Shown one piece after another: positions 3,898 to 26,842 of a DNA stretch of 41,539 nucleotides (within the stretch, counting starts at the first letter, position 1; the number at the start of each line of letters is the position of its first letter). Both the position numbers and the translations under genes were made by a program. The stretch comes from Candidatus Omnitrophota bacterium. Its GTDB lineage: Bacteria > Omnitrophota > Gorgyraeia > Zapsychrales > JBDRMG01. The notes under the pieces are model-generated. The model saw nothing but the letters and a program-made list of their open reading frames with translations. It did not search any database and was not told the origin of the DNA. The stretch covers positions 1 through 41,539 of the forward strand of contig JBDRMG010000005.1 in NCBI GenBank assembly GCA_043812495.1, given 5' to 3'.

Positions 3898-3910
3898 CGT
3901 TATTCTCCTT

Positions 3911-3985
3911 TCAATGAGCCCGCCATTGATTCAGTGGCGGGCGAATTGACCCCGAGTCCGCCACAAGCATTGGCGGACTCGGGGT
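3911..3985 (+). repeat. Tandem-GA hairpin element, solitary copy 1 (pilB-pilC spacer)
   Basis: TCAAT-GA-GCCCGCCA..TGGCGGGC-GA-ATTGA, then perfect 15-bp hairpin ACCCCGAGTCCGCCA / TGGCGGACTCGGGGT. Same architecture at 24163, 24657 and 25590. Confidence 0.8.
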
Positions 3986-4001
3986 ACAGCAAATTCCTTT
4001 G

Positions 4002-17868: not shown

Positions 17869-18138
17869 TTACTTCTTCTTGGCTTTTCCTCGAGCAGCCT
17901 TCTTTTTCTTTTTCTTTCCGCCGCGAACCATTTTGGCGCAGGAAATATCACCTTTCTTGTCGATGAAGTACAGGAATCCAGATTTTTTCGTTATGCCAAC
18001 CTTAGCAACCTTCTTAGGGGCTCCGCCTTTTTTGCTACCGCGAGCCATTTTAGCACAAGAAATATCACCCTTTTTATCGACGAAGTACAGGTAACCACCT
18101 TGCTTCTTAATGCCGACCTTAGCGACTTTTTGAGCCAT
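17869..18138 (-). CDS. Small, very basic protein with two ~31-aa repeats and a poly-Lys tail (putative nucleic-acid binding)
   Basis: 27 of 89 residues are Lys; repeats are 25/31 identical; SD GAGGTG; own terminator. Confidence 0.85.
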   Translation of the reverse strand: MAQKVAKVGIKKQGGYLYFVDKKGDISCAKMARGSKKGGAPKKVAKVGITKKSGFLYFIDKKGDISCAKMVRGGKKKKKKAARGKAKKK

Positions 18139-21403: not shown

Positions 21404-21565
21404 TTACCTTCTTTCTCTTAATTTCCAACGTATCGCCATAAGGCGCTTGGAAGAAGTTTTGACTGCTAATTGATGCAGTTGTTCGAGGATTTCAAGTTTT
21501 TTAGCCGGGGGGATTTTCATCCACTTGCGCGTTCTTTCGTTGGCACTTTCCCATTTTGATATCAT
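21404..21565 (-). CDS. 53-aa basic protein coupled to the nucleotidyltransferase (not in the ORF track)
   Basis: MISKWESANERTRKWMKIPPAKKLEILEQLHQLAVKTSSKRLMAIRWKLRERR*; ATGA overlap with the upstream stop; fills the gap to dapL. Confidence 0.7.
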   Translation of the reverse strand: MISKWESANERTRKWMKIPPAKKLEILEQLHQLAVKTSSKRLMAIRWKLRERR

Positions 21566-22056
21566 GCCAGTCTTCCGTTTCTCTTGATTCGATTTAGTTC
21601 ATAGATGTCAATCTTATCTATGTCTCGATTTGCTTTCTTTTTCATTTTAATCAAATGGTCAACGGACATGACCCACAGCGTCAATTGTCCGCACTTGATC
21701 CGTTTAGCAGATTTAATGGCTTGCTCAAATGAGACCGGTGACTCAATAATAATATCGACTTCCTTAAATGCTTCTTCCTTGTAAAAGTTAAAAGCTTTCA
21801 TGTGCTTGTTTTTAATCCAATCTCTTCGTGTGTTGGTATTGGCAATCCCCATGGGATCAACCGGCTGTTTGACTCTGTATCCTTTTTGGGTGAGGATCCT
21901 AACGATCTTCGCGAGATTCTCATCGCTCATTTCAACAAGGATATCTAAATCAGCCGTACTGCGGAAAGAACCTAAAAGATTGACAGCTAAGCCGCCGGCA
22001 ATAACATAACGGACTTTCTTTTTTTGAAATTCACTCAAGATTTCTTCGTAGAACAT
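21562..22056 (-). CDS. Pol-beta superfamily nucleotidyltransferase (AbiEii/DUF6036-like)
   Basis: 'YVIAGGLAVNLLGSFRSTADLDIL' and C-terminal 'LIKMKKKANRDIDKIDI'. Confidence 0.85.
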   Translation of the reverse strand: MFYEEILSEFQKKKVRYVIAGGLAVNLLGSFRSTADLDILVEMSDENLAKIVRILTQKGYRVKQPVDPMGIANTNTRRDWIKNKHMKAFNFYKEEAFKEVDIIIESPVSFEQAIKSAKRIKCGQLTLWVMSVDHLIKMKKKANRDIDKIDIYELNRIKRNGRLA

Positions 22057-22096: not shown

Positions 22097-22816
22097 CTAT
22101 TTCAACTGCAGCACATCTTGCATATTAAACAAACCTTTTTTCTGTGCCGAAACATATTTAGCGGCGACCAAAGAGCCTTCGGCAAAGATATCGCGCGTTT
22201 TGGCATGATGGCCGATCGTGATCGTATCGACCTTGCTTTCAAAGACAACTTCATGATCTCCCACAATCTCATCTTCGCGGATCGATTTGATATTTTCTAC
22301 CTTTGCGCCTGTGGCGTTCTGGATAATTTGCGCTAAGGACTTAGCGGTCCCGGAAGGGGCATCCTTTTTATGAACATGATGGGCTTCGGTGATTTTGACC
22401 GCATAGGCGTTGGATGTTTTCTCGGAGACGATTTGGGCGAGTTTAAAAAGAACATTCACGCCGACCGACATATTGGAGGCAAAGACAATCGCGATTTTCT
22501 CCGAGGCCTTGCTGATTTTCTGGATCTGTTCATCCGAAAGTCCGGTTGTCCCAATCACCATTTTGACATTGTTTTTGACGCATTCATCACAATGAGCCAT
22601 GGTGGCTTCGGGTGAGGAAAATTCAATCAGCACATCCGCTTTTTTCAGATTTTTGACGTCCGATGCAATCGGAATTTTATCAACCTGTCCGCCGACGGCA
22701 GGATGGTTCTTATGTTCCAGAAGCGATGCAATCCTAAACTCTTTATCTTCTTGGGCTAGATGAAGAATTCTCAATCCCATACGCCCCTGACATCCGCTAA
22801 TTCCTAATTTAATCAT
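22097..22816 (-). CDS. dapB: 4-hydroxy-tetrahydrodipicolinate reductase
   Basis: 'GCQGRMG', 'VIGTTG', 'ASNMSVGVN', 'EAHHVHKKDAPSGTA'. Confidence 0.98.
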   Translation of the reverse strand: MIKLGISGCQGRMGLRILHLAQEDKEFRIASLLEHKNHPAVGGQVDKIPIASDVKNLKKADVLIEFSSPEATMAHCDECVKNNVKMVIGTTGLSDEQIQKISKASEKIAIVFASNMSVGVNVLFKLAQIVSEKTSNAYAVKITEAHHVHKKDAPSGTAKSLAQIIQNATGAKVENIKSIREDEIVGDHEVVFESKVDTITIGHHAKTRDIFAEGSLVAAKYVSAQKKGLFNMQDVLQLK

Positions 22817-22879
22817 GAAACATCCCTTCCTTTATTTATTCTACTTCGCCGAATACCCCGCAGCTTGGCTTTCGGGGAT

Positions 22880-22935
22880 GTCCGCCTTGCAAAGCAGGGC
22901 GAGATCTCGCCCAAAATCTTTGATTTTGGGCGGAA
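22880..22935. repeat. AGATCT twin-hairpin (dumbbell) element, copy A
   Basis: GTC-CGCCTTGC aaa GCAGGGCG-AGATCT-CGCCCAAAATC ttt GATTTTGGGCG-GAA. Confidence 0.75.
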
Positions 22936-22958
22936 AGGCGGAAGTAGAACCCTACGAA

Positions 22959-23092
22959 GTCCGTCTCCGCCAAATTGCTTTCGCGTTTGGCTTCGCCGAG
23001 ATCCCGCCGAAGTCAAACACGATAAGCACTTCGACTTTGCTGTGTCCTTCGAAGTGTCCTGAGCTAGTCGAAGGATATTTGACGAAGGCGGA
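22959..23092. repeat. Degenerate AGATCC twin-hairpin element, copy C, with a further repeat in its second loop
   Basis: GTCCG..GCCAAA..TTTGGC..CG-AGATCC-CGCC-GAA-GTCAAA...TTTGAC-GAA-GGCG-GA; loop holds CTTCGAC...TCCT-GA-GCTAGTC-GA-AGGA. Confidence 0.55.
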
Positions 23093-23272
23093 CTCAAACA
23101 CGCAACGAAGTGAAGTTTTTGAGCGGTCCTCCTTCGCCAAGGCTTCGGAAGGATTCTGCGAAGCTTTAGCGAAGCAGAACTTCGAAGAATGAACCATCCA
23201 AAACTTCCTTTAAGATACCCCGTAGCTTGCTACGGGGAGATTCATTGCTTTGGTCGGTTGCTTTCGTTAATT

Positions 23273-24151
23273 CTATTTCAGAAGTCCGTATTCCTTCAGA
23301 GCTTTCTTTAATTTCTCTTTGTTGTCATCCGCCATCGGGCAAAGAGGCAAGCGTACCTCATCGGAACAAAGACCCAAAAGCCCAGCCGCTGTCTTAACGG
23401 GAATCGGATTTGTTTCAATGAACAGGGCCTTGATGAGAGGCAAAAGCTTGTAATGCAACTCCTGAGCTTTTTTGATATTGCCGCTTTCAAAGGCTTTGAC
23501 CACATTGACCGTATCTTGAGGAACGAGGTTGGCGACAACCGAGATAACACCAACACCGCCAATGCCTAAGATGGGCAATGTGAGGGCGTCATCACCGGAA
23601 AGCAATAAGAAATCTTTAGGGCAGAGGCTCTTAATCTGAAGCATTTGATCAAGCGATCCCGAGGCCTCTTTGACGCCGATAATATTCTTGCAGTCGTGAG
23701 CCAGCTTGGCTATGGTTTCGGGATTGATATTGACAGCTGTCCGACCGGCGATGTTATAAAGAATGATGGGAATATTGACGCTGTCGGCGATTGCTTTGAA
23801 ATGAAGATAAAGGCCACGTTGCGTCGGCTTATTATAATAAGGACTCACGATCAAGGCGCCGTTGGCTCCGGCCTTTTTGGCATGTTGAGTTAAGGCCACC
23901 GCTTCCTTTGTTGAGTTAGAACCGGTGCCGGCTAGGACAGGAACCCTTTTGTTTGAAGCTTCGATGCACACTTCAATGACGCGCTCATGCTCTTCGGTTG
24001 AAAGCGTCGGAGATTCTCCCGTTGTTCCGCAGGGTAAAATGCCCGTGGTGCCGTTTTTGATTTGAAAATCAACCAATTCTTTGATTTTAGCTTCATCGAC
24101 TTGGTCATTCTTAAACGGTGTCATTAAGGCGACAATAGAACCCTTAAACAT
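23273..24151 (-). CDS. dapA: 4-hydroxy-tetrahydrodipicolinate synthase
   Basis: 'GTTGESPTL', 'PYYNKPTQ', 'LYNIAGRT', 'GVKEASG', 'LSGDD', 'ETNPIPVK'. Confidence 0.98.
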   Translation of the reverse strand: MFKGSIVALMTPFKNDQVDEAKIKELVDFQIKNGTTGILPCGTTGESPTLSTEEHERVIEVCIEASNKRVPVLAGTGSNSTKEAVALTQHAKKAGANGALIVSPYYNKPTQRGLYLHFKAIADSVNIPIILYNIAGRTAVNINPETIAKLAHDCKNIIGVKEASGSLDQMLQIKSLCPKDFLLLSGDDALTLPILGIGGVGVISVVANLVPQDTVNVVKAFESGNIKKAQELHYKLLPLIKALFIETNPIPVKTAAGLLGLCSDEVRLPLCPMADDNKEKLKKALKEYGLLK

Positions 24152-24162
24152 AATACTCCTCC

Positions 24163-24310
24163 TTTAATGAGTGCGTCACTTATGGAGCGAGCGAAAACGT
24201 CCGTCAAATTGCCTCAGGGCAATTTGACGAGATCTCGTCAATCTGTCAAAAGCAGATTGGCGGAAGCGAACATAAGTGACTGCACGAATTAAACCCCCAC
24301 ACCAATTATT
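24163..24310 (+). repeat. Tandem-GA hairpin element, copy 2 (left flank of GIY-YIG gene)
   Basis: TTTAAT-GA-GTGC-GTCACTTATG...CATAAGTGAC-t-GCAC-GA-ATTAAA-CCCCCACACCAATTATT. Confidence 0.82.
24199..24265. repeat. AGATCT twin-hairpin (dumbbell) element, copy B, nested in the loop of copy 2
   Basis: GTC-CGTCAAATTGCC tcag GGCAATTTGACG-AGATCT-CGTCAATCTG tcaaaag CAGATTGGCG-GAA. Confidence 0.75.
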
Positions 24311-24563
24311 ATGACAAACAATTTGAAATACGTCTTTTTAATTGGGCAAAGGCTCGAGATCTTAATTTAAGATTTCTTTCTCTATTTCTAGCATTACTCT
24401 CGGACTTGTAGCTCTCGCAATAGATCAGCTCAAAAGGTCCCCTTTTCTCTGTTGAAGCCACTTGACCGTTGTTGTGCTCTTTGACTCTTCTATTTAAATC
24501 ATTCGTAAATCCAATATATAAATTCGAATCTCTCGTACTTTTTAGTAAATAAACATGAAACAT
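24309..24563 (-). CDS. Stand-alone GIY-YIG nuclease (YhbQ/SLX1-like, 84 aa)
   Basis: MFHVYLLKS...LYIGFTNDLNRRVKEHNNG...ARNRERNLK retains the Tyr, Tyr, Arg, His and Glu positions. The ORF-track N-terminal extension is repeat DNA. Confidence 0.93.
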   Translation of the reverse strand: MFHVYLLKSTRDSNLYIGFTNDLNRRVKEHNNGQVASTEKRGPFELIYCESYKSESNARNRERNLKLRSRAFAQLKRRISNCLS

Positions 24564-24583
24564 TTTTGTATCTTGTTCATTAA

Positions 24584-24657
24584 AATAATTGGTGTGGGGG
24601 TCAAATTCGGACATACAACTTATGTCACTTCGTTCCATAATTTGTGTCCTCATTTGA
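24584..24657 (-). repeat. Tandem-GA hairpin element, copy 3 (right flank of GIY-YIG gene; contains the dapF stop)
   Basis: Minus strand: TCAAAT-GA-GGACA..TTATG-GA-AC-GAA-GT-GA-CATAA..TGTCC-GA-ATTTGA-CCCCCACACCAATTATT. Confidence 0.82.
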
Positions 24658-25471
24658 CATGGTACTCTCCTTTTGCGATAAATTGAACAGGTCCTTTCAA
24701 CCAGACATTCTCAATCTTTCTATTTTTTAAAGAAAACTGAATATTGAGAAGCTCCCCTCCGCTTGTCCGCACGTTCATCGAGACATGATCTCTGGAGAGA
24801 ATCAACGGGTTGGCTTTCAAAAAAGTGATGATCGCGCAGGCCACCGAACCCGTTCCGCAAGCCAGGGTTTCGTCTTCGACGCCTCGCTCATAGGTCCGCA
24901 CGTTCACGAGATTTTGTTTGACTTGCTCCACAAAATCGACATTGGTGCCGCGCGGTTTAAATTTATTATGGAAACGAATAAAACGGCCGATTCCGCTCAC
25001 GTCAATTTTTGCAAGATCACTGACAAAAATAATCGCGTGCGGGACACCTGTATCGATATAATTCACCTGAATAGTTCGTTTGCCGATTTTAATGGGGATG
25101 TTTGGTTTGTAGCCTTGAGGTTCGCTTAAGCGCACTTTGGCCACTTGCCCTTTAGCTTGCGCCAAGAGATTCCCTGACATTGTTTCGATACTAAATAATG
25201 TCTTTTTGGGTCTGCGGTTTTGAACAATGAAGGCCGCCATGCAGCGCGCTCCGTTACCGCACATCTCCGCTTCGGAGCCGTCGGCATTGATGATGCGCAT
25301 GCGGTAGTCAGCTTTCTTGGATTTATCCAAAACCAAAAGACCGTCGGCGCCAACTCCTGTTTTGCGGTTACAGACTTTGATGGCCAATTTCTTGAAATTG
25401 GTCTTAAGTACCTCCATAACCACAAAGTCGTTGCCCGCTCCTTGCATTTTTGTGAATTTAATTTTTTTCAT
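24650..25471 (-). CDS. dapF: Diaminopimelate epimerase
   Basis: 'FTKMQGAGNDF', 'AEMCGNGARC', 'GVPH', 'TYERGVEDETLACGTG'. Start trimmed to MKKIKF. Confidence 0.98.
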   Translation of the reverse strand: MKKIKFTKMQGAGNDFVVMEVLKTNFKKLAIKVCNRKTGVGADGLLVLDKSKKADYRMRIINADGSEAEMCGNGARCMAAFIVQNRRPKKTLFSIETMSGNLLAQAKGQVAKVRLSEPQGYKPNIPIKIGKRTIQVNYIDTGVPHAIIFVSDLAKIDVSGIGRFIRFHNKFKPRGTNVDFVEQVKQNLVNVRTYERGVEDETLACGTGSVACAIITFLKANPLILSRDHVSMNVRTSGGELLNIQFSLKNRKIENVWLKGPVQFIAKGEYHVK

Positions 25472-25502
25472 TAATGAAGCATTATGATTATATTTGTTTC
25501 CT

Positions 25503-25590
25503 CCCCGCCCTTTTGCTGAAAGCAAAAGGGCGGGGTCAATTCGGCCTTATGACTTATGTCGTTTTACTCCGTAAGTCATGGCCTCATTGA
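25503..25590 (-). repeat. Tandem-GA hairpin element, solitary copy 4 (overlaps the lysA 3' end)
   Basis: Minus strand: TCAAT-GA-GGCC-ATGACTTACG-GA-GT-AAA-AC-GA-CATAAGTCAT-aa-GGCC-GA-ATTGA-CCCCGCCCTTTTGCT ttc AGCAAAAGGGCGGGG. Confidence 0.82.
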
Positions 25591-26842
25591 TTAAGAAAGA
25601 AGGAATGGTTTCACCTTGAGCGAGATCCTTAAATGTTTCCCGTCTTTTGACAATGCTGAATTGGTTTCCCTTGACCATGACTTCCGGAACACGGCAGCGC
25701 ATATTGTAGTTGCTGGACATCGTGTATCCGTACGCTCCGGCGCTCATCACCGCCAAGAGATCATTTTTCTTAAGCATAGGAAGCCGGCGGTCTTTTCCTA
25801 AAAAGTCACCGCTTTCGCAGATCGGGCCGACCACGTCAACCTTAACCGTCCGTGCTCGTCTTTTGACGACAGGAACGATTTCCTGATAAGCATGGTAAAG
25901 GCTCGGACGAATGAGGTCATTCATCCCGCCATCAACAATAAAGAATTTCTTAAATCCGTTATCCTTGAAGTAAAGCATTTTGGTCACAAAAATTCCCGCA
26001 TTGCCGGTGATAAAGCGGCCCGGCTCCATGATAATTTTAAGGCCCGATTTCTTGAGATAGGGCAACACCGCATGGGCAAATTGATCGGCATTCTGCGGCT
26101 TTTCATCCTTGTAAATGATACCGAGACCCCCACCGATATTAAGATATTCAAGGCAGACTCCCGCAGTTCTAAGATCCGTCAAGAATCTAGTTATTCTTTT
26201 CATGGCCTGAATAAATGGTTTCTGGCTTGTGATCTGAGATCCGATATGAATATGCAAGCCGTTCATCCGCACATGCGAAAACCTCGCTTGCGATTTAAGC
26301 ACCCGACGCGCATTCTTGAGATCAATGCCGAATTTTTTCGACAAAGTCCCTGTCGTAATCGCCTGATGCGTGGCGGCATCCACATCCGGATTGATGCGTA
26401 GAGCCACCTGGACCTTTCGCTTCATTTTTCTGGCCACGCGATTGATGTTCTCAAGTTCAGGAACAGACTCGACATTAAAAAATAAAATATTTTTTCTAAT
26501 GGCAAAGGCGATTTCCTGATCCGTTTTGCCGACTGAAGCAAACACGATTTTTCTTGGATCGGCACCGGCCTTGAGGGCTTTTTGAAGTTCCCCCATCGAG
26601 ACAATATCAATGCCGGAGCCAAGATTCAGCAGAGTTTTAATCACGGAAAGATTCCCGTTTGATTTCATTGAGAAGCAAATCAAAGGATCAACGGAAGCGA
26701 AGGCGCGCTTTAACTTGAGGAAGTGATCCGACAAAGTCTTATGGCTGTAAAGATAAAAGGGTGTGCCGACTTTGCGGGCCACCTCTCTTACGCTGACCTT
26801 TTCGCAATATAATTCGCCTTTTCTAAACTTAAAATCGTGCAT
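25547..26842 (-). CDS. lysA: Diaminopimelate decarboxylase
   Basis: 'GTPFYLYS', 'SMKSN', 'HIHIGSQI', 'EPGRFI', 'VVGPICESGD', 'GAYGYTMSSNYN'. Confidence 0.98.
   Translation of the reverse strand: MHDFKFRKGELYCEKVSVREVARKVGTPFYLYSHKTLSDHFLKLKRAFASVDPLICFSMKSNGNLSVIKTLLNLGSGIDIVSMGELQKALKAGADPRKIVFASVGKTDQEIAFAIRKNILFFNVESVPELENINRVARKMKRKVQVALRINPDVDAATHQAITTGTLSKKFGIDLKNARRVLKSQARFSHVRMNGLHIHIGSQITSQKPFIQAMKRITRFLTDLRTAGVCLEYLNIGGGLGIIYKDEKPQNADQFAHAVLPYLKKSGLKIIMEPGRFITGNAGIFVTKMLYFKDNGFKKFFIVDGGMNDLIRPSLYHAYQEIVPVVKRRARTVKVDVVGPICESGDFLGKDRRLPMLKKNDLLAVMSAGAYGYTMSSNYNMRCRVPEVMVKGNQFSIVKRRETFKDLAQGETIPSFLINEAMTYGVKRHKS

Follow-up and report, generated by a model that had tools for sequence, protein, structure and literature searches.

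Between dapF and dapA of a Candidatus Omnitrophota bacterium lies a small gene for a GIY-YIG nuclease enclosed by inverted repeats, and this locus raises the question of whether the gene belongs to a mobile element and, if so, by what enzyme that element is spread. The window analysed here (i.e., the whole stretch of 41,539 nt on which the locus lies) and its counterparts in other genomes point to a real family of mobile elements, defined by C-run/G-run arms, a variable loop and a duplication of about 4 nt with the consensus T-N-N-A. The layout, the spread over unrelated sites and phyla, the gene-less relatives, the exact insert sizes and the 4-nt duplication can all be read directly from the sequences, and they are presented below before the putative role of the nuclease is considered.

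An intact nuclease gene as the loop of one stem

A preliminary description of the window had reported an intact 84-aa GIY-YIG gene that splits dapF-dapA and forms the loop of a perfect 18-bp inverted repeat, and both statements hold (Table 1). The protein (P0001) matches Pfam GIY-YIG (PF01541) over residues 2-71 with 63 bits (cut-off 22.6; E 3e-17), and its Y5, Y16, G18, R26, H30 and E62, which we take to be the catalytic positions of the GIY-YIG family, are invariant across 29 aligned homologues; the first motif reads HVY instead of GIY. The Pfam search of the protein gave GIY-YIG-clan matches only and no recognised transposase, and the NCBIfam search gave nothing above cut-off. Its predicted structure has a pLDDT of 91.8, the nearest solved sequences and folds are UPF0213 BH0048 (1zg2) and EF2693 (1ywl), HIGLE (7wme) and Slx1, and solely from this likeness we assume that the protein belongs to the SLX1-like family cd10449. 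A homodimer modelled through strand 45-54 scored 0.86 (best control 0.00), with a contact agreement of 100% and a pLDDT of 93, a mark that was reached by 20/30 solved pairs and 1/23 single chains in a benchmark; the nuclease is probably a homodimer on this model, and the pass may stem from likeness to solved GIY-YIG dimers. GIY-YIG has 16 matches in the same genome, including a UvrC-like one, and Y1 transposases have 7; none of the other GIY-YIG matches is enclosed by arms of this type.

The arms are 273 nt apart and form the longest inverted repeat of the window, and it is the inner 307 nt that are conserved as a unit, with CCCCCACACC-type arms around the gene. The 4-mers that flank this core element (24290-24293 and 24601-24604) mismatch at one base. 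An Rfam search of the window gave no match.

Table 1. Coordinates of the element, its insertion site and related repeats in the window
Feature	Position	Strand	Remark
Core element, 307 nt, C5 run to G5 run, gene as loop of one stem	24294..24600		same layout in 63/77 homologous loci (best 80 of 510)
Arm at 3' end of gene, 18-bp perfect inverted repeat	24293..24310		exact reverse complement of 24584-24601
Arm at 5' end of gene	24584..24601		exact reverse complement of 24293-24310
GIY-YIG nuclease gene, single-domain, 84 aa, SLX1/UPF0213-like kind	24309..24563	-	stop codon overlaps arm
Outer tandem-GA hairpin, dapA side, with nested smaller hairpin pair (about 24188-24262)	24163..24292	+	fold z -8.8 vs shuffles
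Outer tandem-GA hairpin, dapF side, supplying the dapF stop codon (24650-24652)	24602..24657	-	fold z -2.3/-3.1, weak
Degenerate ~21-nt duplication of ancestral dapF/dapA overlap, first copy (end of dapF)	24653..24673	-	17/22 columns match second copy, by eye
Degenerate ~21-nt duplication, second copy (ribosome-binding site and start of dapA)	24144..24165	-	dapF/dapA overlap or abut in 15/29 relatives
Gene-less unit between lysA and dapF, GA hairpin and 33-nt stem, different arm type	25503..25590	-	z -9.1 (25495-25600)
Gene-less unit, GA hairpin and 35-nt stem, third arm type	3911..3985	+	z -8.0 (3900-3995)

The dapF-dapA junction in relatives

The dapF gene was present in 40/41 genomes searched, and loci were obtained for this genome and 29 relatives. 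In 29/29 of these relatives dapA follows dapF without a GIY-YIG gene, which contradicts the possibility, raised in the preliminary description, that all relatives carry the gene at this site, and the insertion is therefore lineage-specific. The two genes overlap or abut in 15 relatives, are separated by 21-81 nt in 11, and are separated by 146-151 nt of other repeats in 3. A degenerate duplication of about 21 nt, derived from the old dapF/dapA overlap, brackets the whole 500-nt insert and may be either a product of the insertion mechanism or a result of selection for intact copies of both genes; among the contigs from sequencing runs that were searched, none spans the stretch or shows an empty dapF-dapA site.

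Elsewhere in the window, the dapA-dapB spacer (22815-23270) is crowded with other hairpin families, a 164-aa nucleotidyltransferase-like gene (DUF6036, a weak match) lies downstream of dapB at 21562-22056, and two 107-nt direct repeats that are 77% alike lie 117 nt apart at 17911-18134.

Tandem-GA hairpins and the repeat family of this genome

Inverted tandem-GA hairpins do lie outside the two arms, as had been described, with a strong fold on the left and a weak one on the right; their G-A steps appear as 2x2 internal loops in folding, sheared pairing being outside the model. The nested pair in the left hairpin is absent from related contigs, where the joint skips 24187-24263 in 2/3 sequencing runs (contigs from other organisms). 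The proposal that the tandem-GA hairpin is the conserved recognition unit had to be abandoned: as the core unit it is ruled out by its presence in 7/80 homologous loci by pattern and two more by eye (best 80 of 510), and tandem-GA hairpins are an Omnitrophota-type addition to the core element.

The units at 3911-3985 and 25503-25590 had been taken for gene-less versions of the same element, and they do have the GA hairpin and the C-run/G-run foot in common with it, whereas their arm sequence differs. The latter unit lengthens the C-terminus of lysA by about 14 codons and has an arm type that also brackets another GIY-YIG gene (locus L140), and the former immediately precedes a ribosome-binding site of the minus strand. 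Arms of the gene-bearing type recur on other contigs as 15 gene-less paired units and 2 unpaired arms; 16 paired copies of the stem type that encloses the gene (29-307 nt) are present in the genome, just one of them with the gene. The GA-hairpin pattern has 134 matches in the genome vs 16-17 in shuffles, with 85 of the matches leading straight into a C-run stem, and an earlier form of the pattern had 84 matches vs 8-11. Counted by sequence pattern, which misses diverged copies, about 117 GA units with at least six stem types stand against one arm-bearing gene in this genome.

Units with a single GA hairpin (e.g., at window 3985-4000 and 25475-25502) often have a conserved A/T-rich tail of about 28 nt on their other side. 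The loops of gene-less units (contigs C1, C2, C16, C29, C43, C47 and C66 of this genome, G000, and metagenome loci) are unrelated in sequence, and unit sizes cluster about 50-56, 95-112 and 122-133 nt. The idea that loops of 103-106 nt are gene remnants or captured host DNA was rejected; they gave no match to the gene, and the 7 loops tested matched elsewhere in the genome only one shared subfamily.

Homologous loci in other genomes

From 510 confirmed candidates the best 80 homologous loci were kept, 77 of which had enough flank for an arm search. The preliminary description had proposed folding the flanks of homologues to look for inverted hairpins, and among these best 80 of 510 the arms are present on both sides of the gene in 63/77 loci, vs 1/319 controls, with an exact inverted repeat of at least 12 bp in 57/77. 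Reading frames are intact in 77/80 homologues, a count that is biased because the best matches were the ones kept. Record titles name Omnitrophota, many Patescibacteria, Cloacimonadota and Elusimicrobia, and the flanks of the 80 loci (best 80 of 510) represent 71 separate neighbourhoods, none of them beside dapF/dapA. Copies of the element lie at tRNA 5' ends (by eye) and inside an RNase P RNA gene (L109) and a 23S rRNA gene (L272). More distant homologues have other arms, which match other stem types of this genome, and on the protein tree the arm types fall into clusters (11 changes vs a shuffled mean of 17.5, with 0/500 shuffles as low), which simple co-inheritance would also produce. Viral contigs yielded neither a homologue nor a short hairpin, and plasmids yielded no homologue of the 84-aa protein.

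In two genomes (L068 and L075) the gene-bearing element has split one and the same small Cys-rich gene, and the diverged flanks still appear, by eye, to read as the same protein, a pattern that raises read-through or repeated insertion; an empty allele of this site was searched for and none was retrieved. By eye, small GIY-YIG genes also lie directly before a tRNA gene, without the arms, at L004, L009, L011, L141, L277, L278, L281 and L284. Most of these genes follow a 5' fragment of the tRNA in question, itself broken by a hairpin; this arrangement represents a second layout (by eye).

Gene-less hairpins and the signature of insertion

A metagenome scan that started from a 15-nt arm found at least 123 loci, 43 of them short-flanked. 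The matches listed comprise 55 paired units and 70 arm matches without a partner arm; among them, 46/55 pairs are 26-150 nt long and lack a whole gene, and 7/8 units of more than 250 nt hold the nuclease (295-345 nt). The same matches include one 204-nt pair that is part of an interrupted nuclease gene and one 1165-nt pair with imperfect arms and without the nuclease, and in the remaining pairs no other cargo or enzyme was found between the arms. L160 is an internal deletion in which the 3' third of the gene is kept between the arms, and which, judged by its sequence, shows the direction from gene-bearing unit to hairpin.

Direct 4-nt repeats with the consensus T-N-N-A flank 25/81 units (permutation mean 6.4, maximum 17 in 5000), and the same 81 units gave no excess over permutation of 3-nt, 5-nt direct or inverted 4-mer flanking repeats. 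Among gene-bearing units, with same-site duplicates dropped, 8/37 have a 4-nt direct repeat (mean 2.2, p 0.0002); an exact duplication is thus kept by 31% of all units and 22% of gene-bearing units, and most flanks are imperfect. Empty alleles give the size of the insert. Genome G159 has two 29-nt hairpins in frame within long genes, which we take from their motifs to be ligA and an mfd-like gene, and the loci of relatives are exactly 33 nt shorter in 7/7 and 12/13 cases, i.e., by 29 nt plus a 4-nt duplication, in frame. At L262 and L467 the nuclease genes are themselves interrupted by hairpin elements with exact 4-nt duplications. The analogy to the REP/RAYT layout that had been drawn for this locus stands for an enzyme gene with inverted repeats and dispersed gene-less palindromes, and fails at the 4-nt target duplication, which is unlike REP/RAYT or IS200-type insertion.

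Co-occurrence of the repeats with the nuclease

Among 121 genomes of the phylum, 8 have short arm hairpins and 10 have the nuclease (E<=1e-24), and the three strongest nuclease matches all come with short hairpins. The preliminary description had asked whether the repeats track the nuclease rather than RAYT, and with this genome excluded arm hairpins occur in 3/9 nuclease genomes vs 4/111 others (p 0.009), and in the phylum of G159 (151 genomes, the nuclease in 15), with G159 excluded, in 2/14 vs 2/136 (p 0.044), a weak but significant association whose p values overstate it because assemblies are incomplete and genomes related. GA units, again with this genome excluded, occur in 4/9 nuclease genomes vs 9/111 others. 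No association of the repeats with Y1 transposases was found (p 0.67 and 0.51). When genomes were rechecked at E<=1e-14, no arm-bearing gene was found in 8/9 GA-unit and 4/6 hairpin-only genomes, whose assemblies are incomplete, and 2/5 gene-carrying genomes lack a short gene-less hairpin. Taken with the arms at homologous loci (63/77, best 80 of 510) and the empty sites, this co-occurrence with the nuclease, and not with Y1/RAYT-like genes, supports the earlier suggestion of an autonomous/non-autonomous pair.

None of the 7 Y1 genes of this genome is enclosed by these arms. Two long Y1 (RAYT/TIRYT-like) genes (G000:C2:45904-47095 and C4:1157-2237) lie within their own 18-bp inverted repeats of unrelated sequence, and an IS200-like gene with a premature stop (L017, G000:C64:87-700) adjoins a partial stem-and-tail unit of the repeat family.

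Putative mechanism and alternative explanations

We consider it slightly more probable than its contrary that the nuclease nicks at its own stem and that host repair inserts the copy. A homodimer of the nuclease would bind the stem base in single-stranded or extruded DNA (i.e., on the lagging strand or in a cruciform), whatever the content of the loop, and would nick a few bases off the stem foot, like SsnA beside its hairpin. A T-N-N-A site would then receive the freed, hairpin-closed strand, through either a staggered nick or 4-nt annealing, host polymerase and ligase would complete the insertion, and gene-less copies would be mobilised in trans. In this lineage the core would have fused with the outer tandem-GA hairpin, giving a larger unit at gene junctions, often beside ribosome-binding sites. 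Recognition and nicking by the 84-aa nuclease are proposed by analogy with SsnA, and the strand-joining step is one that we infer. GIY-YIG enzymes hydrolyse DNA and, to our knowledge, are not known to join strands, so the insertion step would be without precedent. Also speaking against this course are the low share of units with an exact duplication, the repeat-bearing genomes in which no arm-bearing gene was found, the gene-carrying genomes that lack a short hairpin, the 70 arm matches without a partner and, in this genome, the many GA units beside a single arm-bearing gene. The element may propagate both itself and its gene-less hairpins with no transposase of a known kind. In its fullest form, which we advance tentatively as having somewhat less than an even chance, this reading would make the 84-residue GIY-YIG homodimer the only element-encoded factor of an autonomous transposon of about 300 nt, which would also move hairpins of 26-150 nt in trans and leave 4-nt duplications; in Patescibacteria, Omnitrophota and other uncultured phyla, sub-clades with their particular arms would each act on a hairpin family of their own.

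The hairpins could instead owe their spread to something else (replication slippage, or an enzyme of the HUH or DDE kind acting in trans), and the nuclease would then be a homing-type passenger, cutting hairpins that already exist and becoming copied into their loop. The inner arm extensions, which vary but remain complementary (median 12 bp from a CAC core), look as though the gene occupied the tip of an older hairpin, many repeat-bearing genomes are without the gene, and Y1 genes are present in 88/121 genomes, so that their availability sets no limit. We nevertheless regard such a passenger as unlikely, given that the repeats are not associated with Y1 genes, that the 7 Y1 genes of this genome lie outside these arms (two have 18-bp inverted repeats that differ in sequence, and an IS200-like one adjoins a partial unit), that the arm-first scan revealed no other enzyme between arms among the matches listed, and that L160 points from gene to hairpin; a 29-nt unit would also seem too short for a paired-end DDE complex.

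Domestication is another explanation: in an Ssn-like system, the nuclease would cut incoming or recombining ssDNA at hairpins and so tune gene exchange, the repeats would multiply by host recombination, and mobility of the gene would be incidental. Such a role has been shown for SsnA in Neisseria transformation, according to the available text of PMC11893778, and the intact frames in 77/80 homologues (biased, as the best 80 of 510) would fit it. What makes it a rather improbable account is the patchiness of the gene (10/121 and 15/151 genomes), a different site nearly every time (71 neighbourhoods for 80 loci, best 80 of 510), and the insertions themselves, with the gene inside RNase P RNA and 23S rRNA genes and with hairpins that entered housekeeping genes, in frame, as well as the nuclease gene. 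Least probable, and in our judgement highly improbable, is that the stem acts in RNA, where it would control translation of the nuclease or let the insert be cut from transcripts like an rRNA intervening sequence. The right arm does extend into the stop codon or coding sequence in 39/53 loci, copies do lie within RNase P RNA and 23S rRNA, and 26/85 GA units adjoin an anti-Shine-Dalgarno-like sequence vs a 3.9% background; by contrast, stem mismatches reveal no clear G-U preference (9 G-T vs 5 A-C), the outer pair of GA units covaries as Watson-Crick in 80/85, the window has no Rfam match, and target duplications would be left unexplained. An RNA role could be a side effect that makes insertions tolerable.

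If nicking at the stem followed by host repair is the true course of events, it would add a transposition chemistry, account for the many palindromes and the peptides inserted in frame that occur in uncultured bacteria, and extend compact sequence-specific ssDNA nucleases beyond Ssn, and an autonomous transposon of about 300 nt would rank with the smallest known. The available text of PMC11893778 leaves open whether repeats are spread by their small GIY-YIG nucleases, and the question is now directly testable with one 84-aa protein because of the sharp ends, the 4-nt duplication, the empty alleles and a 29-nt minimal substrate.

Comparison with known systems

IS elements with MITEs have terminal inverted repeats, a short target duplication and derivatives by internal deletion. 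Terminal inverted repeats and a target-site duplication are also found here; the differences are that these elements have no DDE, HUH or serine transposase, total 280-345 nt, and have gene-less units down to 26-29 nt. Rickettsia palindromic elements are palindromes tolerated in frame in proteins and within structured RNAs, and the units described here differ in being much shorter and in having a candidate cognate enzyme. Unlike the gene of a homing endonuclease, which has a fixed insertion site and a product that cuts the empty allele, this gene occupies 71 neighbourhoods at 80 loci (best 80 of 510), and homing into the repeat family itself is the less likely reading considered above. A search of the open-access literature returned no description of this split-stem family, and a term search of the main text of the Weinberg 2017 motif paper (PMC5737381) gave 0 matches.

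Stand-alone prokaryotic Slx1-like/UPF0213 nucleases, which are the nearest solved sequences and folds to the 84-aa protein, are presumed repair enzymes (Dunin-Horkawicz 2006, PMC1564403, as far as its available text goes), whereas the clade of the 84-aa protein is patchy and element-borne. With REP/REPIN and RAYT, and with TIRYT/TIRtrons (available text of Di Nocera 2013, PMC3733652), the elements share an enzyme gene between inverted repeats, doublets in inverted orientation and many dispersed gene-less palindromes akin to the flanks of the gene (here 15 same-arm units, and 134 GA hairpins vs 16-17 shuffled). They differ in having a GIY-YIG enzyme and not an HUH tyrosine (Y1) transposase as cargo (in 7/8 units of more than 250 nt, among the matches listed), no GTAG/CGTC tag, and a 4-nt target duplication.

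The closest parallel is Ssn (cd10448; Chenal 2025, PMC11893778), a sister family for which the available text already documents that a small GIY-YIG gene is paired with hairpin repeats of its own. Ssn nucleases are described there as small GIY-YIG proteins that cut ssDNA beside their own NTS/SRM hairpin repeats, SsnA cleaving beside the stem even when the loop is removed or extended, and the authors propose a mobile origin, likening the system to REP/RAYT and IS200/IS605. In both cases a single-domain GIY-YIG gene of less than 100 aa lies between inverted repeats of a family of its own, whose gene-less copies occur genome-wide. The 84-aa protein, however, falls in an SLX1-like group that is called the sister of Ssn in the peer-review file of PMC11893778. 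A tree of 84 rows and 84 columns, from which half of the closest homologues had been dropped at random, unites 11 operational Ssn references (N. gonorrhoeae, Azospirillum, others and L005 of this genome) in a clade at SH-aLRT 98 that excludes P0001; a position of P0001 as sister of that clade was not rejected by the AU test (p 0.76). P0001 and the gonococcal homologue have 33% identity and score 43 bits, and the alpha/beta/gamma-proteobacterial and viral-contig references score 87-122 bits among themselves. Within 500 nt of the gene, one SRM accompanies 1/84 genes in homologue loci, and does so on a single side; no gene has SRMs on both sides and the window has none, vs at least one SRM at 9/12 reference genes from NTS or plasmid loci.

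L005 (G000:C64:52802-53020) is an Ssn-clade gene of the same genome that has an inverted repeat of 10 bp and is flanked by GA-rich hairpins, which gave no match to the SRM pattern.

The repeats differ in kind as well: here the two arms are the halves of a single stem whose loop is the gene, whereas each SRM, as described in the available text, is a whole hairpin and an unrelated repeat. By analogy, P0001 would work like the Ssn proteins described there without being a member of Ssn. The role of the enzyme in these elements is putative, and the evidence of their mobility, i.e., a 4-nt duplication, empty alleles and in-frame insertions, none of which we saw reported for Ssn in the available text of PMC11893778, is stronger than that published there for Ssn.
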